The position numbers and the translations under genes are program-made. 64,000 nucleotides of DNA from Candidatus Ruminimicrobiellum ovillum (GTDB lineage Bacteria > Elusimicrobiota > Endomicrobiia > Endomicrobiales > Endomicrobiaceae): assembly GCA_002448285.1 (NCBI GenBank), contig DJWX01000011.1:185907-249906 (forward strand). Reading direction: 5' to 3'. Shown piece by piece: positions 25,055 through 44,646 of this stretch; positions within the stretch are counted from its first letter, which is position 1, and every line of letters starts with the position of its first letter. Under the pieces are notes generated by a model. That model had not been told where the DNA came from and made no database searches. It saw only the letters and a list, made by a program, of their open reading frames with translations.

Positions 25055-26335
25055 TTAGTTAACAATTTTTGCCGTTATGAATATAGTAAGTTCATATCTC
25101 GATTTGTTTTTCGTTTCACTCTTAAATAAGTATCCCAATATAGGAATATCACCCAATAACGGAACTTTGTTTACTGTCGTATCTTCCGTTTCTCTTATTA
25201 AACCGCCTATAGCCGCAGTTTCTCCGCTTCTTAACATTAAAGTAGTTGTTGATTTACTTGTATTAATAACAGGTGTATTTTCTTCTCCGATTGTTTCACC
25301 TGTTCTATAACTTTGTTCCGGAGATATCGATAATACTATCGAACCGTCTCTGTTTATTTGAGGTTTTACTTTTAATTTTATACCGGCTTCTTTAAATGCC
25401 ATTGTTCCCGTTGTATTTCCTTCGGTAGAAGTTGTTTTACTTTCCAAATAAGGAATTTCTTCAACAATATCTATCGATGCTTCCTGATTGTTCAAAACAA
25501 GAAGTTTAGGATTCGATAATACTTTAGCATCTTTATCTTCAACACCGGCTTCAAATGTTCCGTTTATACTCCAATCATCACCTTCAAGAATAGAAACTCC
25601 TACTCTTGCAAAAGATTTTGTTAAACCTAATCCCATAACCGAACCTATAGGAGTATCATAAACAAAATTTTTGTTGTTCATTTTTGAAGGATCAACGGTA
25701 GGATTAAGTAATCCGTCTCTATAAGTTTCGTTCCATCTTGTTCCTATTGCCGTTCCGTGAGACAAGTTAATATCTACGATTTTAGCTTCAAGTAAAACCT
25801 GTTGTGTAGGAACATCCAAAGATCTTATAAGACCTTCCATTTTATCTATACTATCGGCCAAATCCGTAATAATTAAAGAGTTTGTTCTTGTATCGGAAAC
25901 GATTTTACCGCCTTTTGATAATCTTGTTGACAAAATTTTCTCTAAATCGGAAGCCTTTGCATAGTTACAAAAAATAACTCTGGAAACCGTAATGTGGCTT
26001 CCGTCCGCTTTACTCTTAATAACATATATGTTTGCATCACCCTGTTTAACATAATACAAATCATAAGTATCAAGCAAAGCATTAAGAGCTTCTTCCGCAG
26101 TAACATCCTGCAAAGATAACATTATCTTCTTTTGATATAAATCCGTGGAAGAAATCAACTTCATACCTGTCTTCATACTTAAAACGTTTAAAACAGTGTA
26201 TAGTGAAGTTCCTTGAAAATCGATAGAAATTAAGTTTGTGGAATGTAAACCTCCGCCACTCTCTTTTTCCGGCGCAGAATAAGAAGTAGTAAATAGTAAA
26301 GAAACAGCTAATACCGTCAACAAAAGTTTTTTCAT
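25055..26335 (-). CDS. Secretin (PilQ/GspD family, short form)
   Basis: Signal peptide, N0/N1-like domains, and the secretin C-domain motif VPLLGDIPILGYLFKSETKNKSRYELTIFITAKIV. Confidence 0.9.
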   Translation of the reverse strand: MKKLLLTVLAVSLLFTTSYSAPEKESGGGLHSTNLISIDFQGTSLYTVLNVLSMKTGMKLISSTDLYQKKIMLSLQDVTAEEALNALLDTYDLYYVKQGDANIYVIKSKADGSHITVSRVIFCNYAKASDLEKILSTRLSKGGKIVSDTRTNSLIITDLADSIDKMEGLIRSLDVPTQQVLLEAKIVDINLSHGTAIGTRWNETYRDGLLNPTVDPSKMNNKNFVYDTPIGSVMGLGLTKSFARVGVSILEGDDWSINGTFEAGVEDKDAKVLSNPKLLVLNNQEASIDIVEEIPYLESKTTSTEGNTTGTMAFKEAGIKLKVKPQINRDGSIVLSISPEQSYRTGETIGEENTPVINTSKSTTTLMLRSGETAAIGGLIRETEDTTVNKVPLLGDIPILGYLFKSETKNKSRYELTIFITAKIVN

Positions 26336-32430: not shown

Positions 32431-34116
32431 TTATTTTTCTGCCATACTCACATTAAATACTTCTTCTACCGTTGTTCTTCCTTCCAATAATTTAGCAATA
32501 GCGGCTTTTCTTAAAGAAATAATTCCCTGCTTTGCAGCTAAATCTCTTAATTCAACATCGGTAGCACCTCTGGCAATAGCATCTTTCAAATCTTTTGTAA
32601 TTCTTAACATTTCAAATATTGCCGTTCTTCCTTTGTAACCGGTATTGTCACAGAACTTACAACCTTGTCCTTCATAAACTTTACAAGACTTATCAAGTTC
32701 CAACTTTTGATATATCTCATCCGGAAGAGTTACCTCTTTTTTACAATTAGGGCAAATTGTTCTAACCAATCTTTGCGCTATAATCAAATTCAAAGCATCC
32801 GCCATCAGGTAAGATTCAACACCCATAAAAGCCATTCTCGAAATTGTACTTACCGTATCGTTGGTATGCAAAGTTGAAAATACAAGATGTCCCGTCAATG
32901 CGGCCTGAATTGCTATTTGTGCCGTTTCGGTATCTCTGATTTCTCCTACGAGTATAACATCAGGGTCTTGTCTCATAAAGGTTCTTAAAATTCTTGCAAA
33001 GTCCAAACCTATATCCGCTCTGACATGGCACTGATTAATTCCCTTCAACTCATATTCCACAGGATCTTCCGCAGTCATAATGTTAATATCTGCCGTATTT
33101 ATATGCCCTAAAGCGGAATAAAGAGTTGTAGTTTTACCGCTTGATGTAGGACCGGTAACAAGTATCATTCCGTATGGAGCCGTGATTGCTTCTTTAAAGA
33201 ACGCTAATTCCTGAGGGCTAAACCCTACTCTTTCTATGTCCAAACCAAACACGTTTTTAGCAAGGACTCTCAGTACTATCTTTTCACCCCATATAGTCGG
33301 TATTATCGAGACTCTTATATCTATCTTCTGATCTGAAATTTTTATTCTGCATTTACCGTCTTGCGGCAATCTTCTTTCGGCTATATCGAGATCCGACATA
33401 ATTTTTATTCTGGAAACAATAGCCGGATAATATTTTTTAGAAGGAGCAGGCATCTGTTGCAAGATACCGTCTATTCTCATTCTCAAATAAATTTCTTTTT
33501 CGAACGGTTCCAAATGAATATCACTGGCTTTCTTGGTTATCGCATCAAAGAAAATCGAATTCACATACTTAATAACCGGAGCCGAATCCGACTCTTCAAT
33601 ATCATCGGTTAATTCTTCTTCCTCTTCAGCCTCTTGTATTTCATTTTCGCCGATTTCTTTACTTAAAGAACTTCTTACATAAAATCTTTCTATGAAAGAT
33701 AAAATATCTTTTTCGGATGCCAAGATTACCGAAAGTTTCTTATTGGTAATTCTTGCAAGCTCATCCTTATAAACAACATTCGCGGGATCAGCCATCGCAA
33801 CTACAAGCATATCTCCGTTAAGTTCCAAAGGAACAGCACAATATTTTCTTGCTATTTTTTCTTGAATTAAATCAAGAACTCTTTGTTCTACATCAACTTC
33901 CGACAACTCGCGATATTCAACACCTAAGGCTACCGCCAAACATTCCAATAATTGCGGTTCGGAAATATATTGTTTTTCTAAAAGAATACTTCCGATTTTC
34001 TTCTTTTTTTCTAAGGACTCTTTCAAACACTCCGACAACTGCTCTTTTGTGACATACTGCTTACTTAAAAGGACTTCTCCAAGATACTTTTTTCGTAAAA
34101 CTTCTAATACCATCAA
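32431..34116 (-). CDS. pilB: PilB/GspE assembly ATPase
   Basis: Walker A GPTSSGKTT, Asp/His boxes, and a tetracysteine motif CPNCKKE...CKFCDNTGYKGR. The N-terminus is a T2SSE_N/MshEN-like domain. Confidence 0.92.
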   Translation of the reverse strand: MMVLEVLRKKYLGEVLLSKQYVTKEQLSECLKESLEKKKKIGSILLEKQYISEPQLLECLAVALGVEYRELSEVDVEQRVLDLIQEKIARKYCAVPLELNGDMLVVAMADPANVVYKDELARITNKKLSVILASEKDILSFIERFYVRSSLSKEIGENEIQEAEEEEELTDDIEESDSAPVIKYVNSIFFDAITKKASDIHLEPFEKEIYLRMRIDGILQQMPAPSKKYYPAIVSRIKIMSDLDIAERRLPQDGKCRIKISDQKIDIRVSIIPTIWGEKIVLRVLAKNVFGLDIERVGFSPQELAFFKEAITAPYGMILVTGPTSSGKTTTLYSALGHINTADINIMTAEDPVEYELKGINQCHVRADIGLDFARILRTFMRQDPDVILVGEIRDTETAQIAIQAALTGHLVFSTLHTNDTVSTISRMAFMGVESYLMADALNLIIAQRLVRTICPNCKKEVTLPDEIYQKLELDKSCKVYEGQGCKFCDNTGYKGRTAIFEMLRITKDLKDAIARGATDVELRDLAAKQGIISLRKAAIAKLLEGRTTVEEVFNVSMAEK

Positions 34117-34175
34117 AAACTCCTTTTATATACACATATGAAAAGTTGATTTTCACAACTTTTTCACACTTTAAA

Positions 34176-34204
34176 ATTATAGAAGAATATATCAATTTTG
34201 TCAA
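34176..34204 (-). promoter_or_regulatory. Consensus sigma-70 promoter of the pilB operon
   Basis: Minus strand reads TTGACA-17 nt-TATAAT (-35 at 34199-34204, -10 at 34176-34181). A 9-bp leader hairpin gaaaagttg/caacttttc follows. Confidence 0.75.
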
Positions 34205-34226
34205 TGATTTTCATTCAAATAACAAC

Positions 34227-35411
34227 TTAATCCCTAAAAAACAAATCTCTTGTATAAACTTTATTTTTTACATCTTCAAGCTCACTATTGTAACGATTTG
34301 CTATTATAACATCGGAAACTTGTTTAAATGTATTTATATTCTTAACAACTACCGAATTTAAAAATATCTTTTCCCTGATTGTAGGTTCATATACCACAAT
34401 ATCAATGTTTTTTGCTTTTAATCTTTTGATTATACCCTGAATCGAACTTTGTCTGAAATTATCGGAACCTGTTTTCATGGTTAAGCGATAAATCCCGACG
34501 GTTTTTGGCTTTTTAGAAGCAATCTGTTCGGCAATGAAATCTTTCCTTGTCTTATTGGAATCTACTATAGCGGAAATTATATTTTGCGGAACATTTTTGT
34601 AATTTGCAAGCAATTGTTTTGTATCTTTCGGTAAACAGTATCCGCCATATCCAAACGACGGATTATTGTAGTGGCTGCCTATCCTCGGATCTAAACATAT
34701 ACCGTCAATAATGGCTTTTGAATTAAGACCTTTAAGTTCGGCATAAGTATCAAGTTCATTAAAGAAACTTACTCTTAACGCCAAATACGTATTGGCAAAC
34801 AACTTCACGGATTCAGCCTCCGTAGCAGACATAAATTGTACATTGATATTTTCTTTAATTGCCGCCTGTTTTAATAAATTTACGAACTGTTCCGCTTTAC
34901 TTAGAATATTTTTGTTATTTAAATCGGTTCCTATCACTATACGGCTCGGATACAAATTATCGTAAAGAGCTTTACCCTCTCTTAAAAATTCGGGACTGAA
35001 CAAAATATTATCGGTAGCAAAATTTTCTTTTGCTTTTTGTGTAAAACCTATAGGTATTGTGGATTTTATAACTATAACGGCATTCGGATTAATGTCCGTT
35101 ACTTGCTTTATTACTTTTTCTACCGACGATGTATCAAAAAAGTTTTTTTTCTCATCATAATTTGTTGGCGTGGCAACAACGACAAAATCGGCATTTTTAT
35201 ATGCTGTTCGAGCATCGGTAGTTGCAACTAAATTTAACTCTTTGTTTGTCAAAAAATCTTCTATTTCTTTATCTTTAATGGGAGATTTTTTATTATTTAT
35301 ATCGTTTACTCTTTCATCAAGAATATCAACAGCAATAACTTCGTTTTTTTGAGCCAACAATACAGCAAGCGATAAACCCACATATCCTATTCCGGCAACA
35401 GTAATTTTCAT
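34227..35411 (-). CDS. ugd: UDP-glucose 6-dehydrogenase
   Basis: [14 protein letters not shown] Rossmann N-terminus and catalytic [10 protein letters not shown]. Start moved to Met5, with a GGAG RBS. Confidence 0.9.
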
Positions 35412-35442
35412 TGATTTCTCCAAAATGTGTATAATTGGCGAT

Positions 35443-35471
35443 ATTATACATTAAATTTACCGATATAACAA
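35443..35471 (-). promoter_or_regulatory. Candidate promoter for ugd
   Basis: Minus strand reads TTGTTA-17 nt-TATAAT. Confidence 0.4.
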
Positions 35472-35496
35472 GAATACAAGCAGTAAGAAATATCAA

Positions 35497-36378
35497 TTAA
35501 AATAATGAGCCTGATTTAAAAAAAGATATAACAAACGGAGCAAAAAGAAGAATGAATATTGTGGGCAATATTAAAATTGTCATAGGTAACAACATTTTTA
35601 CCGGAGCTTCATGTGCTTTTTTTTCGGCTATTGCGACATTGTCATCGGACACTTGCCGAGCTATTTTATTCAAGCTGTCGGTAAGACCTGTTCCGGTATC
35701 CAAAGACATTGTTATCGCTTTTACAAAAGTATCTATTTGAACAATATTATATTTTTCAGACAACTCTTTAAAAGCCTGTTTTGTGTCTATTCCCAAAGAC
35801 ATTTTTTTAATAATATCTTTTAACTCGTTTATAAAATGTCCTTCCAAAATCGTTACTATTTTATTGATTGCTCCGTTAAAATCTATTCCGGAATAAACCA
35901 TTATTGCCAATAAATTTGAAACATCCGGTATTTGTTTCACTATTTCATTAATTTTTTTATTATACTGTTCATATATCTTCAGATACGGCAATATCAAGAA
36001 CAATAATCCGAAACATATCATAAATAACATATCGAAGCCGAAAACTATCACCGATATAAAACAACCTGCCAGCATTGATATAAGTTGTATAAAAACAAAA
36101 TTGTATGAATTTATTTTCATATCATTAAAATCAAACACTTTTAACATACTGTCAAGTTTCGCAATATAGTCGACAAACAGTTTTATTTTAATGAGTTTTA
36201 ATATCGGCTGCAACATGTTTGACATTTTCAAAATATATATTAAAAAAATATTTTTATTATCCGCACTTCCATAAAAATTTTGTTTTGCATAAAAACCCGA
36301 TACAAACATACTTATTGCAAAATAAAGAATATAAAACAAACCAGTCAAAGTAATAAATGTTAATATTAAATACATCAT
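35497..36378 (-). CDS. tadC: TadC-like platform protein (T2SSF family)
   Basis: T2SSF domain with TM helices at both ends. Start moved to Met21, which forms an ATGA overlap with the tadB stop. Confidence 0.7.
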   Translation of the reverse strand: MMYLILTFITLTGLFYILYFAISMFVSGFYAKQNFYGSADNKNIFLIYILKMSNMLQPILKLIKIKLFVDYIAKLDSMLKVFDFNDMKINSYNFVFIQLISMLAGCFISVIVFGFDMLFMICFGLLFLILPYLKIYEQYNKKINEIVKQIPDVSNLLAIMVYSGIDFNGAINKIVTILEGHFINELKDIIKKMSLGIDTKQAFKELSEKYNIVQIDTFVKAITMSLDTGTGLTDSLNKIARQVSDDNVAIAEKKAHEAPVKMLLPMTILILPTIFILLFAPFVISFFKSGSLF

Positions 36379-37175
36379 AATTTTATGTCCGCAATTTTTT
36401 TCATCATAAAAGAACCGGATAAAATCATAATAACACAAACAAGCAATATGATATTACCTAAAACGGAAGAGAACAAGATCGATACCATTTCCGGTTCGAT
36501 AAAATAAATTATAAAAATTATAAAAAACGGAATCGTGCTTATAACCATTCCTGAAAAACGCACCTGAGAAGTAAGAACATCAACTTTGTTCGCTAAATAA
36601 AGTTTTTTAGAAACGGATTGTTCTATTTTTGAAAGTATATCGGAAATTTTTATACCGGTAGAATGAGATATCTTTAAAGAATCCATAAAAAATTTATATT
36701 GTTCATTTTGAATTTTATCCGTAGAATCTTTTAAAGCTTTATCCAAACCGATACCTAACTCGACTTTCTTCAATATTTCTTTAAATTCCGATGATAACGG
36801 ATCTTTTATTTGGCAAGAAACAGATTCTATTGCTTGAATTATATTCTCTCCGGACGAAACCGAATTTCTAAATAGTCTTATTGTTTCCAATATCTGTTTA
36901 TCTATTTCCTTTTTATATTTTTGTTTTTTATTTTCGGTAAAAAGCCAAAAACAATAAACTCCCGCAACGGTTATTATTATTGCATATATTACATTAAGCA
37001 AAACAGATATCAAAACAAAACAAATAATAAGCAACAAAATTCTTTTTTTGCTTTGTTTTTTGTTCTTATTTTTTACAAGTGCAGTGTCTTTTGATTTTAA
37101 CGATAAAGCTGAATAAAAAACCAATAAACAAAAAGATATTAAAAAAAGTAATAGATATACAATGTTTAAACTCAT
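36375..37175 (-). CDS. tadB: TadB-like platform protein (T2SSF family)
   Basis: N-terminal TMs, a T2SSF core (...GENIIQAIESV...LGIGLDKAL...), and C-terminal TMs. Confidence 0.7.
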   Translation of the reverse strand: MSLNIVYLLLFLISFCLLVFYSALSLKSKDTALVKNKNKKQSKKRILLLIICFVLISVLLNVIYAIIITVAGVYCFWLFTENKKQKYKKEIDKQILETIRLFRNSVSSGENIIQAIESVSCQIKDPLSSEFKEILKKVELGIGLDKALKDSTDKIQNEQYKFFMDSLKISHSTGIKISDILSKIEQSVSKKLYLANKVDVLTSQVRFSGMVISTIPFFIIFIIYFIEPEMVSILFSSVLGNIILLVCVIMILSGSFMMKKIADIKL

Positions 37176-39064
37176 AAGTGTTTTATGAAAATATTTTTAT
37201 GATTATCATAGGTAAAAACCGGAACCAATTTATATTCGCCGTTTTCCGTTTTTTCCAACAAGGAAATTTCAGATATTTTTCTTGAACCGTCAGGATATCT
37301 TTTTATTTGAACAATAATATCCAATGCCGACACTATCATGGAAATTATAGATTTTTCCGGTAAGTCAAAACCCGCCATTAAAGACATAACAACAAGTCTG
37401 GATATCGCATCCGAACAAGAATTGGAATGAACAGTTGTCATTGAACCGCTGTGACCGGTATTCATCGCCTGTAACATATCCAATGTTTCGGCAGCTCTAC
37501 ACTCACCGACAATAATTCTGTCCGGCCTCATTCTTAAAGAATTTATAACAAGTTGTCTTATCGTTATTTCCGATGTTCCCTCTAAAGATTTCGGCCTTGA
37601 CTCAAGTCTTACAACATGTTCCTGCTGCAATTGAAGTTCGGCGGAATCTTCAATTGTTATTATTCGTTCTTTTGAATCTATAAAAGAAGACAATATATTC
37701 AATAAGGTGGTTTTACCGGAACCTGTTCCGCCCGAGATTAAAATGTTTTTTTTATCATTAACGGCAGTTTTTAAAAAATTCAACATTTCTTCGTTTAACG
37801 AGCCGAAACTTATAAGTTCTTGTCCCGATAATTTATGCTTTGAAAATTTTCTTATTGTTAATACCGGCCCATATAAAGATATCGGGGATATAACAACATT
37901 TACTCTCGAACCGTCTTTGAGTCTTGCATCGACTATCGGAGAAGATTCATCAACATGTCTGCCGATCGGCGCAACAATTCTGCTGATAACATTTTTTAGT
38001 TTTTCAACATTCTCAAATTTAATATTCGTTTTTTCTATCTTACCTTTTTTTTCAACATATATATTATCACAACCGTTTACCATTATTTCGGTAATATTTT
38101 CATCCGCCAACAAATCTTCCAAAATTCCGAATCCCGCTATATCATTAATCAATTCTTTTATAATTTTTTCTTCGGTTTCATTATTAAGTTTTATTCCGTA
38201 TTTCAAAACAAGTTCTCTAACATTTACCATGATTATGTTCGATAAAACTTTTTTATCGCTTTCATCAGAATAATCTTTCATTTTTTCAATTAAATCTTTA
38301 TGTAGTTTTTCTCTTAAAAGATTATATTTATTCGAACCTGCGGCTATATCAATTATATTATTACCTTCGGTGGTGCATTGTGATATTTTCCCCATAATTT
38401 TCTTTATGCCGTCAACGAAAGCATTTTTTCCGTCATTAAACATAAAGTTTTTATCGATAACTTCTTTTTCCGTATCGGAATCAAAGTTAATAAATATTGA
38501 GTTTTGTGGAATAAAATTTTCTTCTTTTTCATCAATATTAAAATCAATATCGGTTTTTAATATTACCGGGAAAACGTTTATATCTTTGATTTTATTTATA
38601 ACTATATCGGAATATATTTTTTGGTAATTTGACAGAGAAACAGGCTCTTTTTCAAGCAAACATAAAACAATATCACTCAAAGATAAGAAATCATGAAAAC
38701 CTTCGCTGTTATCATAAACAACAAAAATATTATCATATATTTTCGATAAAGATTTTATTATAAAGTCCAAATTACCGTTGAGTAATGTTGTTATATTTTT
38801 CACACAAACAATATCGTTATTCGTATCGAAATATGATTTTAACATAGACACATTAAGATTCAAAGCAACATTCAATATATCATCCAAAAATTTTATATTT
38901 TTTTTACCGTAATAAGCCCAAATTATGTTGCTGTGTCGTCTTACATCAACAACAATATTTTTTTTATTATCGTAAGTATTTACGGCAGACAGTCCTCTTG
39001 CCAAAGAAGTTGCATAAACGGACTTGTTTGTTTGTAGAATGGATATTATTTTTGATTTATTCAT
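37172..39064 (-). CDS. cpaF: CpaF/TadA secretion ATPase with a ~235-aa N-terminal degenerate ParA/TadZ-like domain
   Basis: Core motifs ITEIMVNG, SGGTGSGKTTLLN (Walker A), IITIEDSAEL, PDRIIVGECR. The N-terminal extension is discussed in the findings. Confidence 0.88.
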   Translation of the reverse strand: MNKSKIISILQTNKSVYATSLARGLSAVNTYDNKKNIVVDVRRHSNIIWAYYGKKNIKFLDDILNVALNLNVSMLKSYFDTNNDIVCVKNITTLLNGNLDFIIKSLSKIYDNIFVVYDNSEGFHDFLSLSDIVLCLLEKEPVSLSNYQKIYSDIVINKIKDINVFPVILKTDIDFNIDEKEENFIPQNSIFINFDSDTEKEVIDKNFMFNDGKNAFVDGIKKIMGKISQCTTEGNNIIDIAAGSNKYNLLREKLHKDLIEKMKDYSDESDKKVLSNIIMVNVRELVLKYGIKLNNETEEKIIKELINDIAGFGILEDLLADENITEIMVNGCDNIYVEKKGKIEKTNIKFENVEKLKNVISRIVAPIGRHVDESSPIVDARLKDGSRVNVVISPISLYGPVLTIRKFSKHKLSGQELISFGSLNEEMLNFLKTAVNDKKNILISGGTGSGKTTLLNILSSFIDSKERIITIEDSAELQLQQEHVVRLESRPKSLEGTSEITIRQLVINSLRMRPDRIIVGECRAAETLDMLQAMNTGHSGSMTTVHSNSCSDAISRLVVMSLMAGFDLPEKSIISMIVSALDIIVQIKRYPDGSRKISEISLLEKTENGEYKLVPVFTYDNHKNIFIKHL

Positions 39065-39897
39065 TATTTTTGAGAATATTTATTTATTATTTCGTTTAAC
39101 TCTTTTTGTCTTTTTTGCATTTCGGTATTCTGCTGTCTTACGGATTGTATTTTTATATTTGCCGTGGCATTCTCACAAATATCATTTATCTTAACTGTTT
39201 TATTTTGTTGAATTTTATCGTCGGAAGAAGCTCTTAAAACAACTTTCAATATTCCTTTTTCCTGTGCCAAAACTATTTTTTGTGCTTCTTCCATAGAAAC
39301 AGCCATCGTTACCGGAATATTTACGGAAACGGTTACTTCTTCCGCAGATTTTTTTGCAGAACCTATAATATCGTTACCGACTGCCAACACCAAAAGATTT
39401 TGAGCAACCACACACGCGGCTTCTTCAAGTCTTTGATTTTTATTTTCATATTCTATAATCGATATTAAATCAACTTTACTTCCGGAAGTAATTATTCCGT
39501 TTATTTCCTGATTATTAAAAAGTATCGTTATTGCTTTTTTGTTATCGGGTATGGTGTTTGCCAAGCCGAATCCCGATATTAACGACGATATTTTAGATGA
39601 TGTTATTTGTTCCCCTTCTTCAAAAGGAACTATGGATATATATGCAGGTTTTCCGTCAACATAAAATTCTTTTATTTCCGATATATATTTAGGTTGAACA
39701 TATTGTTTGGGAACAATCTTTTCCTTTATCATCGAATCCGTTATAATTTGTCCCTGTTCTATTCTTTGATTGGCAACAACAACTTTAATTTCTTCGGACA
39801 TACTTTTGTTTTGCTGTCCCGTGTCGTACAAGTATAAAGTTGCAAACAATGCCGAAAACAGTGCCAATACGGCTATAAGTATAACATTTCTTTTCAT
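39064..39897 (-). CDS. cpaB: CpaB/RcpC Flp pilus assembly protein
   Basis: N-terminal TM, an SAF-like domain (VVVANQRIEQGQIITDSMI), and a beta-clip C-domain. Confidence 0.8.
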   Translation of the reverse strand: MKRNVILIAVLALFSALFATLYLYDTGQQNKSMSEEIKVVVANQRIEQGQIITDSMIKEKIVPKQYVQPKYISEIKEFYVDGKPAYISIVPFEEGEQITSSKISSLISGFGLANTIPDNKKAITILFNNQEINGIITSGSKVDLISIIEYENKNQRLEEAACVVAQNLLVLAVGNDIIGSAKKSAEEVTVSVNIPVTMAVSMEEAQKIVLAQEKGILKVVLRASSDDKIQQNKTVKINDICENATANIKIQSVRQQNTEMQKRQKELNEIINKYSQK

Positions 39898-39899
39898 AT

Positions 39900-40061
39900 T
39901 TATTTTACATTAGCTTCGGTAGATATTTTCTGTGTTGAATCTTGAAACATACTGTTTACTTTACCGCCGAACATTTTTACACCTGCAATTACAACAATAA
40001 CAACCAAAACGATTATGAGAATATATTCCACCATTCCTTGTCCTTTGTTATTTCTTAACAT
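39900..40061 (-). CDS. flp: Flp-family pilin (53 aa, absent from the ORF track)
   Basis: My manual translation is MLRNNKGQG|MVEYILIIVLVVIVVIAGVKMFGGKVNSMFQDSTQKISTEANVK. It carries the Flp G/xxxxEY motif and has a GGGGGAAAATATG RBS. Confidence 0.85.
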   Translation of the reverse strand: MLRNNKGQGMVEYILIIVLVVIVVIAGVKMFGGKVNSMFQDSTQKISTEANVK

Positions 40062-40078
40062 ATTTTCCCCCGTGAAAA

Positions 40079-40582
40079 TTATTTTCTTTTATGTATTTTA
40101 TTTTTACAACCGCTGCCCGCAAGAACAGACAGTTTTGTTTTTATAATAAATTCATCCATACCTGCAATATTCATTATTTTGGGCAAATTATAAGAATAAG
40201 ATATTGATACGGTTGATAACTCGTTTGACGGAACAAACAGACCTTGAACAATGTTCGAAATATTCGATAAATCCGTTATATTGTTGTAATCGATAGCATT
40301 ATAATTTTTAATATCTACGGTTATATCTTTTATTTTATCCGTATCCAACCTTCTGCCTTCTATCATTTTGTTGGTCAAATAGTTTTTAATATCTTTTTTT
40401 ATATCTTCACCGGACAAAGTCGTATTTGCTATCATATCCGTTCCGTATCTTGTTGCGGAAACGAGTTGTTGCCATGTTAAAAGAACTCTCGCAAACCAAA
40501 CAACAGAAAATATCAAGACTATTATTACAGGAAAAATAAAAACAGCCTCTGTAAATGCCTGCCCTTTTTTGTTTTTAAGCAT
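40079..40582 (-). CDS. tadE: TadE-like pseudopilin
   Basis: MLKNKKGQAFTEAVFIFPVIIVLIFSVVW is a TadE N-terminal motif. Confidence 0.75.
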   Translation of the reverse strand: MLKNKKGQAFTEAVFIFPVIIVLIFSVVWFARVLLTWQQLVSATRYGTDMIANTTLSGEDIKKDIKNYLTNKMIEGRRLDTDKIKDITVDIKNYNAIDYNNITDLSNISNIVQGLFVPSNELSTVSISYSYNLPKIMNIAGMDEFIIKTKLSVLAGSGCKNKIHKRK

Positions 40583-40585
40583 AAA

Positions 40586-41863
40586 TTATTTTTTAGGTTT
40601 TATAATATCAAAACCGGTATACTTTCTTAAAACTTCGGGAATTATGACCGAACCGTCTTCTTGTTGATAGTTTTCCAAAATTGTTGCAAAAGTTCTGCCG
40701 ACCGCAACTCCCGAACCGTTTAATGTATGAACAAATTCTCTCTTTTTTGTTGCAGTATTTTTATATTTGCAATTCATTCTTCTTGCCTGAAAATCTTTAA
40801 AATTAGAGCAGGAAGAGATTTCTCTGTACATACCTTCACCGCTCATCCAAGCTTCCAAATCATAAGTTTTTGTTGAGCTGAAACCTATATCTCCGCTGCA
40901 CAAAGCCATTACTCTATACGGAATACCCAACAACTGCAAAACTTTTTCGGCATCGTTAGTCAAAAGCTCCAACTCTTTTGCGGAATCTTCAGGTTTAACA
41001 AATTTTACCAATTCCACCTTATTGAATTGATGATTTCTTATTAAACCTTTTGTATCTTTACCATACGAACCGGCTTCTCTTCTAAAACATGCGGAATAAG
41101 AAGCATATTTTACAGGAAGTTGCTTTTCATCCAAAACTTCATCTCTGTGTAAATTTGTAACGGAAACTTCCGCGGTAGGTATCAAATATAATTCATCGTC
41201 AGGACATCTGAACAAATCTTCTTCAAATTTCGGCAACTGTCCAGTTCCTCTCATTGAAGCTCTGTTTACCAAATAGGGAGTCATAATTTCCTGATAACCG
41301 TTTTGTTTGTGAGTATCAAGAAAAAAACTGATAATTGCTCTTTCCAAAGCACATCCTTCATTTTTCAACAACGAAAATCTCGAACCTGAAATTTTTGAAG
41401 CTCTTTCAAAGTCCAATATTCCGAGTTTTTCACCTATTTCCCAATGATGTTTCGGCTTAAAAGAAAACTTCGGAGGTTCCCCTACCACTCTTACGACAAC
41501 ATTATCTTTATCACTCTTTCCGACAGGAGTAGTTTCATCGGGAATATTCGGAATTCTCATTAAAAAATCTTCTATTTGATTTTCTATATTAAGTAAAAAT
41601 TTTTCTTTTTCTTGTATTCTTGCTCTTAATTGTTCCAACTCTTCCAACAATTCTTTTTCGGGTTCTTTTCCTTCTCTTTTTAACTTTCCCACCGTTTCGG
41701 AATCGGTATTTCTTTTTAATCTGAACTGTTCTATCTCCGTAATTATAGATCTTCTCGTATTATCCCAATCCATCAGTTGATCTAAATTGATATCCTGATT
41801 TCTTTTTTTTAATCCTTCTTTTACAACATCAATGTTTTCTCTGAATAGTTTAATATCTAACAT
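40586..41863 (-). CDS. serS: Seryl-tRNA synthetase
   Basis: [13 protein letters not shown]-terminal coiled coil and class II motifs (FRREAGS..., GSGVAVGRT). Start moved to Met36, because the upstream part of the track ORF overlaps tRNA-Glu. Confidence 0.93.
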
Positions 41864-41886
41864 TTTTTCCTCTGTAAAAATTAAAC

Positions 41887-41960
41887 CGCTGCCAACGAGA
41901 TTCGAACTCGTGATCCCCGCCTTGAGAGGGCGATGTCCTAAACCGCTAGACGATGGCAGC
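41887..41960 (-). tRNA. tRNA-Glu (anticodon CUC), CCA not encoded
   Basis: Minus strand reads GCTGCCA-TC-GTCTAGCGGTTTAGGAC-A-TCGCC-CTCTCAA-GGCGG-...-GGTTCGAATCTCGT-TGGCAGC-G. The anticodon loop is C-U-CUC-A-A. Confidence 0.8.
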
Positions 41961-42029
41961 AGTTCCATTAAGTATACTTTATAATACCTGTCGGTTATTA
42001 TACAAAAAAGTTAATTAAAAATCTATGAA

Positions 42030-43565
42030 TTATTGCTTAGACAAATATTTAAAAAATATTTTTTCTTCCGGAAATTCCGCAACAAAATTTCCGCTTCTTA
42101 TGTTTCCGTACGAATCATAACTTATAATATTTTCCAAACTTTTCAACTGATCCGCACTTTCAAATACGGTTTTGTTTTCGGAAACGATTATAAATCCTCT
42201 TGAAAATTCAAATATCGGTGTCACACTGCCTAAAACCAAGCATAAACATAAAAACAAATATCTTATCTTATATTTTTTGAAGTTATACGTTCTAAACAAA
42301 AATCTCATAACGAACAACGATAATATCACAAACATCGGAATCGGTGTCCTCATACAAAAATCAACTTTTTTACCGGACATCAATATGGGACACAATAACA
42401 AAAAAATAAAAACGACATAATACATAATTGTTCCTTTATATTGTTTATACATCGGTAAAAGATAAACCATTGCTTCCAATAATATAAAATATATAAACAT
42501 ACATACTATCATCCAAAAAGCCCAAGGTGTATGATGATGTCCCAAACCTCCGGAAATCGTTGCCTTTGCGGTAAGATTGGAAATAAAATATAAAAATATT
42601 ATCGGTGTTATAAATATTACAGCTACTGTATTTTGAACGGAAAAAGTTCTTTTTAAATAATTTAAAATTTTATTTTTTCTGTATTCCGTAAACAAATTTT
42701 TTATAAAGTATGATATCAATAATACGGAAAGACCGATAAACGGTAACGGAGCACAAAAAAAACATAACAAAGCGAGTATTCCGTAATTTTCGATATTTTT
42801 TCTATTATTATAAAACATTAGTGTTATAAGCCAAGCAGGTATCCCCTGGTTAAAAACCCAAAACAGAACCGTGGTATTTGAACTATATTGTCCTATATAA
42901 GACCACCATTCCAAATGTAAATCCTTAAAAGAAAAAGAAGTATCATAAAATACGGGTGTTAATACCCCAACTATATCCATTCCCGAAAAAAGAATAAATA
43001 TAAATATTCCAAGGAAAACTTTACTGTATTTTTTTGTTTTTAAAGCAAACAATATATTAACAAAAATTAAAAAAAGTCCTATTGTACCGTAGATAAACAA
43101 TAATTCGTTTCCTATAAAAAAAGATAAGTATTTGGAAAGAGGTTGAAAGAAAGATATTATTTTTATTATAAGTGCCGCCGGTAACCAAAAACCTATATAA
43201 TAAACAAGTGCAACATTGATATTGTTGTAATAGACCGGCCAATTATGATTTATTAAATCTCTGAAAATTGCATTTCTCCAATGATGATCGTTACTTTGAT
43301 ACCAAAATCCGCCTATTCCCGAAAAATAGCACCACAGTAAAGCCGTTACGAGTACAATTATAAATACTTTTTTATTGTTTAATAAATTTTTACAATTAAA
43401 CTCTTTATTTTTAAAATATCCGCAATACAAGGCATATATAAACAAAACAAATGCCACTGTCGCGATATAAGGTTTTAACCAAGTAGCCAAAAATATCAAT
43501 AAAGGTAAAGAAACATAAATTATGCTTAATTGATTTAAAGTTTGTAAGTTTATTTTCAAATTCAT
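42030..43565 (-). CDS. Polytopic membrane protein (12 or more TM segments), possibly a GT-C/GtrC-type glycosyltransferase or polymerase
   Basis: Very hydrophobic, aromatic-rich sequence with no soluble domain. It is transcribed divergently from a GtrB/ArnC-like gene. Confidence 0.35.
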   Translation of the reverse strand: MNLKINLQTLNQLSIIYVSLPLLIFLATWLKPYIATVAFVLFIYALYCGYFKNKEFNCKNLLNNKKVFIIVLVTALLWCYFSGIGGFWYQSNDHHWRNAIFRDLINHNWPVYYNNINVALVYYIGFWLPAALIIKIISFFQPLSKYLSFFIGNELLFIYGTIGLFLIFVNILFALKTKKYSKVFLGIFIFILFSGMDIVGVLTPVFYDTSFSFKDLHLEWWSYIGQYSSNTTVLFWVFNQGIPAWLITLMFYNNRKNIENYGILALLCFFCAPLPFIGLSVLLISYFIKNLFTEYRKNKILNYLKRTFSVQNTVAVIFITPIIFLYFISNLTAKATISGGLGHHHTPWAFWMIVCMFIYFILLEAMVYLLPMYKQYKGTIMYYVVFIFLLLCPILMSGKKVDFCMRTPIPMFVILSLFVMRFLFRTYNFKKYKIRYLFLCLCLVLGSVTPIFEFSRGFIIVSENKTVFESADQLKSLENIISYDSYGNIRSGNFVAEFPEEKIFFKYLSKQ

Positions 43566-43647
43566 TTTAATTTTTCATCTGTCAGAGATATTATCTTAAT
43601 TTTCGTTGATTATACCATTTTAAAACATAATATAAAACATAAAAAAG

Positions 43648-43676
43648 TTGAAGTCGTAAGATTTTAATGATAAAAT
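43648..43676 (+). promoter_or_regulatory. Candidate promoter for the plus-strand glycosyltransferase pair
   Basis: TTGAAG-17 nt-TAAAAT, followed by a GGAGAAAATAATG RBS and start. Confidence 0.45.
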
Positions 43677-43704
43677 ATCAAAAGTATTCTTTGCGGAGAA
43701 AATA

Positions 43705-44646
43705 ATGAAAAAATTAATATCCGTAGTTTCAAGTGCCTTCAATGAACAAGACAATATTGAAGAGCTCTGTAACCAAATAAAACAAGCATGCGAAACTCTT
43801 AAAGACAATTATGATTACGAACAAATCATACTCGATAACGGCTCAACAGATAATACCGTTAATAAACTAAGAGAACTTGCGGCAAAAGATAAACATATAA
43901 AAGTTATAATAAACACAAGAAATTTCGGTCATATTCGTTCACCATACTACGGTATGTTGCAATCACACGGAGATATTGTTATATCTATAGCATCCGATTT
44001 ACAGGAACCTCCGTCAATGATAATTGATTTTATAAAAAAATGGGAACAAGGTTACAAAGTGGTTTTAGGACAAAAATCCGCAAGCAAAGAAAATAAAATA
44101 ATGTATGTAATAAGAACATGGTATTACAAATTATTAAATTTGTTCAACGATTCAGGCACAAAACTATTGGAACATTGCACGGGTTTCGGGTTATACGATA
44201 AAGAAGTTATCAATAAATTAAAATCCTTAAATGAACCTTATCCTTATCTCAGAGGACTTGTTTGCGAATTGGGATATGAATTAGTATGTATTCAGTTCTG
44301 TCAAAATAAAAGAGAAAAAGGAAAAACAAAAAACACTTTCTATACACTTTATGATATGGCAATGTTGGCGTTTACCAATTATTCGAAAGTTCCGTTAAGG
44401 ATAGCTACAATGTGCGGTTTTCTATTATCGATTTTAAGCTTTTGTTTAGCGATATTTTATTTAATTTTTAAATTATTGTTTTGGTATCATTTGCCAGCAG
44501 GTATAGCACCTATTCTAATATCCGTATTTTTCTTCTTTTCCGTTCAATTGTTCTTTATAGGTATTTTAGGAGAATATCTGCATGCAATACTCACTCAAAT
44601 ACAAAACAGACCTCTCGTTATTGAAAAGGAAAGAATAAATTTTTAA
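43705..44646 (+). CDS. Polyprenyl-phosphate glycosyltransferase (GT2, GtrB/ArnC/DPM1-like)
   Basis: ISVVSSAFNEQDNI...LDNGSTDNT...ASDLQEPP catalytic domain plus two C-terminal TM helices. Confidence 0.8.
   Translation: MKKLISVVSSAFNEQDNIEELCNQIKQACETLKDNYDYEQIILDNGSTDNTVNKLRELAAKDKHIKVIINTRNFGHIRSPYYGMLQSHGDIVISIASDLQEPPSMIIDFIKKWEQGYKVVLGQKSASKENKIMYVIRTWYYKLLNLFNDSGTKLLEHCTGFGLYDKEVINKLKSLNEPYPYLRGLVCELGYELVCIQFCQNKREKGKTKNTFYTLYDMAMLAFTNYSKVPLRIATMCGFLLSILSFCLAIFYLIFKLLFWYHLPAGIAPILISVFFFFSVQLFFIGILGEYLHAILTQIQNRPLVIEKERINF

Follow-up and report, generated by a model that had tools for sequence, protein, structure and literature searches.

A tad locus behind serS in Candidatus Ruminimicrobiellum ovillum as the probable half of a two-locus Tad pilus system

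Six tad genes follow the seryl-tRNA synthetase gene serS in Candidatus Ruminimicrobiellum ovillum, and they probably make up half of a two-locus Tad (type IVc, Flp) pilus system that is typical of Endomicrobiales, namely the half for the inner-membrane parts and the major pilin. They lie on the minus strand of a 64,000-nt stretch of DNA, here called the window (contig DJWX01000011.1, our C2, positions 185907-249906); coordinates given without a contig name are window positions. The source is a rumen Endomicrobiaceae genome (Elusimicrobiota; Endomicrobiales; Endomicrobiaceae), assembled as 1.83 Mb of 32% GC in 27 contigs and rated 100% complete with 0.08% contamination. The remaining parts of the system are encoded by a second module, which sits behind gcvT on contig C10. 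The two modules are contiguous in sister families of the order, and it is this contiguity that identifies them as two halves of one system.

The window locus and its counterpart on C10

The tad genes of the window are arranged in the order tadE, flp, cpaB, cpaF, tadB, tadC. The first, tadE (40079-40582), encodes a minor (pseudo)pilin that matches Pfam TadE (PF07811, E 8.6e-9) and carries the leader MLKNKKG/QAFTE, where the slash marks the processing site. The 53-aa Flp-type major pilin is encoded by flp (39900-40061); its Flp_Fap match (E 1.6e-7) scores 31.4 bits, just below the gathering cut-off of 32.2, and the KG/QGMVEY processing site in its leader, MLRNNKG/QGMVEY, is textbook. The periplasmic alignment-ring protein encoded by cpaB/rcpC (39064-39897) is recognized by Pfam RcpC (PF16976, E 1.2e-16) and by NCBIfam TIGR03177 (116 bits vs a cut-off of 71). 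The 630-aa CpaF (37172-39064) matches Pfam T2SSE (E 3.9e-62) over residues 311-586 only, and its best NCBIfam model is a TadA-family one at 310 bits, under the equivalog cut-off of 373. Its nearest relatives are encoded in rumen metagenome-assembled genomes labelled Endomicrobiaceae, Elusimicrobia and Candidatus Ruminimicrobiellum bubulum, the last from the same genus. Two inner-membrane platform proteins complete the set. TadB (36375-37175) and TadC (35497-36378), encoded by adjacent genes, have one T2SSF domain (PF00482) each, with E-values of 3.4e-13 and 3.1e-11, and are 31% identical to one another.

The genes are packed tightly. Three nucleotides separate serS from tadE (TAA TTT ATG), 17 separate tadE from flp, and two separate flp from cpaB. 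The genes cpaB and cpaF overlap in TAATG, and cpaF and tadB in ATGA; tadB and tadC likewise overlap in ATGA if tadC starts at the ATG at 36378, where the alignments of its orthologues begin. A sequence-only reading that preceded this analysis had described the order and spacing of the tRNA-Glu-serS-tad locus exactly, and Pfam and NCBIfam support the identities that it gave to the genes.

No secretin, A24 peptidase, free-standing TadZ or TadD is encoded within 35497-41863. The earlier reading had noted these gaps, and they are real at the locus itself. Searched with profiles, the whole genome yielded two secretins and one A24 peptidase. The search for additional secretins that the earlier reading had proposed thus uncovered a second one, a 243-aa protein encoded at C10:16219-16950 (PF00263, E 4.9e-45). 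Its gene begins directly after the gcvT stop codon and opens a module with the order gcvT, short secretin, flp2, tadE2, tadG-like. The three open reading frames (ORFs) 3′ of the secretin gene overlap and encode a 59-aa Flp-like protein (KSG/QAAVEY), a 164-aa TadE-like protein (NKG/QSFLE) and a 381-aa TadG-like protein (RKG/QVLPY). The leaders of Flp, TadE, Flp2 and TadE2 have KG/Q...E(+5) in common, and the TadG-like protein has the KG/Q site without Glu at +5. The three assignments rest on this leader motif, on position, on orthology and on occasional tblastn cross-matches of Flp to the flp2 position.

These findings divide the earlier claims. Extended to the whole genome, the list of missing parts fails for a secretin and a TadG-like protein, which are encoded on C10 along with further Flp-like and TadE-like ones, and holds for a dedicated TadV. 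A single Flp and a single TadE-like pilin is a correct description of the window locus, and the genome has a second of each on C10. The system is not ‘minimal’, since its other half (the 243-aa secretin, flp2, tadE2 and the tadG-like gene) lies behind gcvT. The view that a diderm cell would have an incomplete machine here unless parts were supplied in trans describes the locus correctly, as it is incomplete alone and its parts do come in trans, and does not apply to the Tad system as a whole.

The comparison of synteny with relatives, also suggested by the earlier reading, carries the case for a two-locus system. In four genomes of other families (our handles G024, G021, G027 and G030) a single contig holds the series secretin, (short CpaF-like ATPase), flp2, tadE2, tadG, tadE, flp, cpaB, long cpaF, tadB, tadC. 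These contiguous clusters contain orthologues of all ten genes in identical relative order. All 31 Endomicrobiales genomes analysed encode the short secretin. In every Endomicrobiaceae genome searched, secretin and cpaF are on different contigs, and the gcvT-secretin-flp2-tadE2-tadG module is kept across the genus, as it is in two further genera of the family. This family-wide separation, set beside contiguity elsewhere in the order, indicates that an ancestral cluster was cut between tadG and tadE. Other breakpoints exist: G022 has tadG through tadC in one block and the secretin, flp2 and tadE2 on a different contig. The model of Denise et al. 2019 allows for multi-locus Tad systems and calls them ‘very rare’ (PMC6668835).

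Some of the sister-family clusters additionally contain an N-domain-less CpaF-like ATPase, a small lipoprotein and a nearby TadV-type peptidase, all three of which are absent from the window genome. The second CpaF-like ATPase is 349-365 aa long and its gene adjoins that of the short secretin (L091:4518-5567, L092:12096-13193, L096:5505-6563); a lipoprotein of about 135 aa is encoded upstream of the secretin in the families that have it. A separate set of lipoproteins occurs in G014, where four tandem paralogous genes precede tadE (L099:135-3258). Their signal peptides contain (Cys-Ile)n repeats of varied lengths, and the (Cys-Ile)n tract may be slippage-prone.

By all core criteria except a dedicated TadV, the system of the window genome is a Tad (type IVc) pilus. 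Like the Tad systems of Aggregatibacter actinomycetemcomitans, Caulobacter crescentus and Pseudomonas aeruginosa, it has Flp with a G/XXXXEY site, TadE-type minor pilins, RcpC/CpaB, a TadA/CpaF ATPase, paired single-domain TadB and TadC, a secretin and a MinD-like TadZ module. Unlike them, it is spread over two loci, its TadZ is fused to CpaF and lacks the Walker A motif, its 243-aa secretin has no N-domain or S-domain, and no dedicated TadV is present. It is a lineage-specific variant in four respects: a bipartite layout, a P-loop-less TadZ-CpaF fusion, a core-only secretin and a presumably borrowed peptidase. A literature search found no description of any of these four features.

The junction with serS

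The tad half-locus is likely co-transcribed with tRNA-Glu and serS, judging from the signals around them. The tRNA-Glu gene (anticodon CUC; 41886-41961, minus strand), detected by ARAGORN and by the Rfam tRNA model at 61 bits, stands 22 nt upstream of serS (40586-41863, minus strand; Pfam Seryl_tRNA_N and tRNA-synt_2b), which tblastn finds as a single copy in the genome. A 68-nt spacer lies between tRNA-Glu and the membrane-protein gene upstream of it. Within this spacer, a promoter-like -10 box, TGTATAAT, can be read from the sequence at 41997-42004 (minus strand), and the TATAAT upstream of tRNA-Glu is conserved in three congeneric loci (L006, L007 and L008). The TGTATAAT box recurs upstream of ugd (35443-35450, minus strand), where a promoter scan gives TTGTTA-17-TATAAT with 10 of 12 matches. 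The two boxes are the likely limits of a tRNA-Glu-serS-tad transcription unit, the one before tRNA-Glu marking its start and the one before ugd its downstream limit. Genome-wide, TGTATAAT and TGnTATAAT, the TG-extended -10, are 5.7x enriched in intergenic DNA; on the minus strand of 35400-42100, a TG-extended -10 occurs only at 42004 and 35450. A scan found no terminator-like site between serS and tadC, and an Rfam scan of 34000-43800 returned the tRNA only and no regulatory RNA.

Translation of the unit appears to follow two modes. Shine-Dalgarno (SD)-like sequences precede only serS (AGAGGA) and flp (a strong GGGGGA), and tadE has none. The remaining tad genes, namely tadE, cpaB, cpaF, tadB and tadC, start 0-4 nt from the preceding stop codon. 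Such spacing suggests translational coupling, on which these five genes would probably depend.

A rival explanation is that the tad genes are independent of serS, with a promoter in serS or in the 3′ end of tadE driving flp to tadC and the 3-nt gap being a product of compaction. In its favour, serS contains a weak promoter-like site at 40630-40602 (TTAAGA-17-TATTAT, 9 of 12 matches), four species share an identical sequence over the final 32 nt of tadE, flp has a strong SD of its own, and one congener, G013, has a 9-bp hairpin with a U-run between serS and tadE. The 12 plain TATAAT hexamers inside the unit also count against co-transcription, and an internal promoter is possible, for instance at the 3′ end of tadE, ahead of flp. 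Yet the consensus promoter scan is uninformative when taken alone, as its promoter-like hits are no commoner than in shuffled sequence (57 vs 52.6 ± 7.1). Nor does any TG-extended -10 occur inside the unit, and tadE is left with neither a spacer nor an SD. An embedded promoter in the 3′ end of serS was rejected for want of a synonymous-site conservation signal across six species: in the last 25 serS codons synonymous conservation is not unusual, at 0.77 vs a mean of 0.81. Independent expression of the tad genes is therefore rather unlikely, and co-transcription with serS is the preferred reading.

The junction that would enable this co-transcription varies within the genus. It is present in six genomes, namely the window, L006, L007, L008, G003 and G013, with spacers of 3, 3, 5, 3, 16 and 50 nt, respectively; the hairpin in the 50-nt spacer of G013 is followed by U residues. 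The tRNA-Glu gene 5′ of serS is kept in L006-L008 and L105 and is absent in G013 (L104). Two further congeners, G005 (L009) and G011 (L010), lack the junction, and their six-gene block lies behind a divergent gene or an opposite-strand tRNA-Met. In other genera of the family the block is sited elsewhere. The genome is also compact. Neighbouring genes are co-directional in 82% of cases, about 30% of same-strand gaps are ≤3 nt, and the median same-strand gap is about 21 nt (all by crude ORF calling). The tad half on C10 abuts gcvT in the same manner. A junction that varies or is missing among congeners, in a compact genome, means that the ‘welding’ to serS reflects ordinary compaction after rearrangement rather than a designed regulatory link. 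The serS junction is recent and ordinary. The earlier reading had regarded the coupling of a pilus operon to an aminoacyl-tRNA synthetase gene as unusual, a claim at odds with the share of gaps of ≤3 nt, the 3-50-nt range of spacers in the genus and the two congeners without the junction.

Two side observations concern this neighbourhood. The tad cluster of G020, from another family, has serS in its interior, with tadE on one side and flp on the other (L095:10012-11283), so the serS-tad neighbourhood either arose more than once or predates the genus. In the window, all ORFs of ≥110 aa that look like genes are on the minus strand over 304-43565. At about 43 kb and, by crude calling, 43 genes, this co-directional run is probably longer than any other in the genome.

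Secretin, TadZ-like domain and peptidase

In the C10 secretin, a signal peptide is followed by about 65 residues and then by a complete PF00263 domain, which extends to the C-terminus. The databases hold 345 homologues of 240-270 aa, some of which are named CpaC by some sources. The secretins in the PDB that match by sequence are chains of 387-901 aa, aligned in their C-terminal part only, so that the core-only proteins are shorter than any PDB secretin chain they match. An AlphaFold2 (AF2) model of a 96%-identical orthologue (predicted local distance difference test, pLDDT, 66) gave 40 significant Foldseek matches. All are secretins, and the third is RcpA (8odn), whose resolved core comprises 244 residues. 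P. aeruginosa RcpA has a VirB9-like N-domain (residues 28-112) and an S-domain that binds TadD (PMC10499894); the 243-aa secretin has neither. More broadly, the core-only secretin family of 240-270 aa (loci L071-L090) has no N0-N3, VirB9-like N-domain or S-domain.

The window holds the genome's other secretin, a 426-aa protein (25055-26335) encoded 9 kb downstream of the tad locus. Downstream of tadC come ugd and then a cluster resembling type IVa pilus and type II secretion systems (T4aP/T2SS-like), which encodes PilB, PilC, three N-methyl pseudopilins, PilM, two ORFs without a Pfam assignment and this secretin. The Tad platform might use the 426-aa secretin, leaving the C10 protein to serve something else, and the two filament systems do stand back to back with ugd alone between them. 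This arrangement is very unlikely. At least five sister genomes have the short secretin gene within their tad cluster, followed by Flp-type and TadE-type genes, whereas the gene for the 426-aa protein closes its own PilM-containing cluster, behind the two ORFs without a Pfam assignment. On the preferred reading, the C10 secretin would be the one used physically by this Tad machine, as its synteny suggests.

Two further observations were made in the T4aP/T2SS-like region. A perfect sigma-70 consensus promoter (TTGACA, 17 nt, TATAAT; 12/12) is found upstream of its pilB at 34176-34204 (minus strand). In the ORF list, ugd begins at a TTG (35411-35423, minus strand); translation more likely starts four codons further on, at an ATG that follows a GGAG.

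All six tad genes are under purifying selection. The ratio of nonsynonymous to synonymous substitution rates (dN/dS), computed against three congeners with dS of 0.5-1.3, is 0.07-0.11 for tadE, 0-0.015 for flp, 0.11-0.16 for cpaB, 0.11-0.14 for cpaF, 0.15-0.19 for tadB and 0.11-0.16 for tadC; for serS it is 0.02-0.03. Flp is 98-100% identical in three related species at a dS of about 0.55-0.62. A side observation concerns the mosaic identity of 35497-40582, where tadE, flp and cpaB are nearest to L007/L008 (88-91%) and cpaF, tadB and tadC to L006 (81-84%), which suggests recombination between species within the locus.

We give almost no credence to the explanation that the locus is a decaying or non-functional Tad remnant, as the earlier reading allowed, or a monoderm-type cassette from rumen Firmicutes that never had a secretin: the locus lacks secretin, peptidase and pilotin, and many Firmicutes and Mollicutes are among the best CpaF ATPase-domain matches outside Elusimicrobiota in a pattern-based scan, but such a scan is no phylogeny, the six genes are intact in every complete congener, dN/dS values of 0-0.19, down to a dN of 0 in flp, reject decay, and sister families of the order have these genes in one cluster with the secretin, on which ground horizontal acquisition from monoderms was rejected as the cause of the missing secretin. 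The window genes are better read as a conserved half of a larger system.

The fate of TadZ is explained by CpaF. The N-terminal extension of the long CpaFs measures 300-366 residues across the order vs 60-140 in Firmicutes homologues. A profile of 19 Endomicrobiales CpaF N-termini was aligned by hhalign with a profile of 11 free-standing TadZ/CpaE proteins encoded directly upstream of cpaF in tad loci of Firmicutes and Mollicutes. The match has a probability of 98.8% and an E-value of 1.4e-16 over 222 columns; the reversed alignment scored 0.1% and the genome's own ParA 84%. By this profile comparison, residues 1-226 of CpaF (38387-39064, minus strand) are homologous to TadZ and form a TadZ/CpaE-like domain of MinD/ParA fold. 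The remainder (37172-38386, minus strand) comprises a three-helix bundle at residues ~245-309 (AF2 helices with pLDDT 82-91) and the TadA/CpaF secretion ATPase found by Pfam T2SSE. The earlier remark that a free-standing TadZ is missing agrees with this picture, as TadZ is a domain fused to CpaF.

Other searches of this region returned less. Pfam has no match in the CpaF N-terminus, and a HMMER profile of it found nothing in the PDB. Against 1.84 billion representatives, the profile gave 15 close relatives, none assignable to free-standing TadZ; the strong matches are either N-terminal fragments or proteins of ~640-666 aa aligned at their N-terminus. A hidden Markov model of the N-terminus likewise detected no TadZ among all ORFs of the Firmicutes loci. 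The AF2 model of this region is too poor (pLDDT 56) for further use. As a side observation, precomputed Pfam annotation places PF27713, a family newer than the Pfam copy used here, on CpaF homologues. It probably corresponds to the three-helix bundle before the ATPase.

TadZ/CpaE is a polar hub protein of the MinD/ParA family, and the first ~226 residues of CpaF align to its ATPase-like domain. The window domain differs in being covalently joined to the motor ATPase, in having lost the P-loop and in having no receiver-like N-terminal domain. The Walker A motif KGGxGKT is replaced by QTNKSVYAT in the window CpaF, and it is equally degenerate by eye in the three distant members read (G020, G024 and G027). 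Even in TadZ itself, Walker A is atypical and ATPase activity is low (PMC6668835). With its ATP-binding loop lost, the TadZ-like domain probably acts as an adaptor or localisation module only.

Processing of the prepilins requires a different explanation. The search for A24-family peptidases urged by the earlier reading found one, a PilD-type enzyme with A24_N_bact and Peptidase_A24 domains and a GGGD motif (C21:134166-134999), and no TadV. Its gene adjoins one for a pilT-like ATPase and a 145-aa ORF with a pilin-like hydrophobic N-terminus and no Pfam match. A dedicated short TadV/CpaA, that is, an A24 peptidase without the methyltransferase domain, was not found, and the C21 protein is the genome's only A24 peptidase. 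Each searched Endomicrobiaceae genome has at most one A24 gene, and one 84%-complete assembly has none. Six genomes of other families have a second A24 gene of TadV type (171-199 aa), which lies ≤2 kb from the tad secretin in G030 and G022. The dedicated TadV was thus lost in Endomicrobiaceae, and for this reason the Flp-type prepilins are presumably cleaved by the lone PilD-type peptidase. Peptidase exchange between filament systems has been reported (PMC6668835). Mannose-sensitive haemagglutinin (MSH) pili and further type IV filament systems use a borrowed prepilin peptidase, and the same logic would apply to this Tad system; the difference is that Tad normally comes with its own short TadV/CpaA/FppA, which the sister families still keep.

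Several points weigh against the reconstruction of a complete two-locus system. In P. aeruginosa, Flp leaders are processed by the dedicated peptidase FppA and not by PilD. The products of flp2, tadE2 and the tadG-like gene have no Pfam or NCBIfam match, and the role of the C10 secretin in this machine is inferred from synteny only. No homologue of the small lipoprotein of the sister clusters was found in the window genome. Finally, no TadD-type pilotin or RcpB was identified, and no profile search aimed at either was made.

Proposed working and significance

The two halves would complement one another. From the window half would come the Flp major pilin, one TadE minor pilin, the CpaB/RcpC periplasmic ring, the TadB/TadC platform and the TadZ-fused motor ATPase. 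The C10 half would add a secretin reduced to the pore core, a second Flp-like and a second TadE-like protein and the TadG-like protein. Prepilins with the common KG/Q leader would be cut by the single PilD-type A24 peptidase of the genome. As for the origin of the arrangement, the single ancestral cluster was most likely split within the family, at the boundary of tadG and tadE; the half from tadE to tadC would then, in part of the genus, have come to lie behind serS, and the spacer shrunk to 3 nt. Transcription of this half-locus with tRNA-Glu and serS would start from the promoter upstream of the tRNA. Within the transcript, flp would be translated from its own strong ribosome-binding site and the other five tad genes by translational coupling.

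Taken together, these proposals lead to a broader and more tentative picture. Endomicrobiales may build a stripped-down Tad in which a catalytically dead TadZ works in cis and the CpaB/RcpC ring alone bridges the periplasm to a secretin core of ~220 residues. In Endomicrobiaceae, the PilD of another filament system would replace TadV. Both halves would lie on housekeeping transcripts (serS and gcvT) and give constitutive piliation, possibly for attachment to rumen ciliates. We regard this combined scheme as possible at best. The function of the pilus is inferred to be adhesion. According to Mies et al. 2024 (PMC11257099), Endomicrobiaceae encode no appendages other than pilins, and an association of Ruminimicrobiellum with rumen ciliates is possible. 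That leaves pili as the one kind of encoded appendage that could mediate the proposed association.

The coupling to serS is in itself of little consequence. Of wider relevance is that a diderm Tad locus with parts seemingly missing can turn out to be one half of a bipartite system, which single-locus annotation or models would call incomplete. This lineage also offers natural minimal versions of three Tad components: a P-loop-less TadZ-CpaF, a core-only secretin and a Tad that apparently relies on a PilD-type peptidase. Among these, the P-loop-less TadZ-CpaF fusion provides a natural test of whether TadZ needs nucleotide binding.

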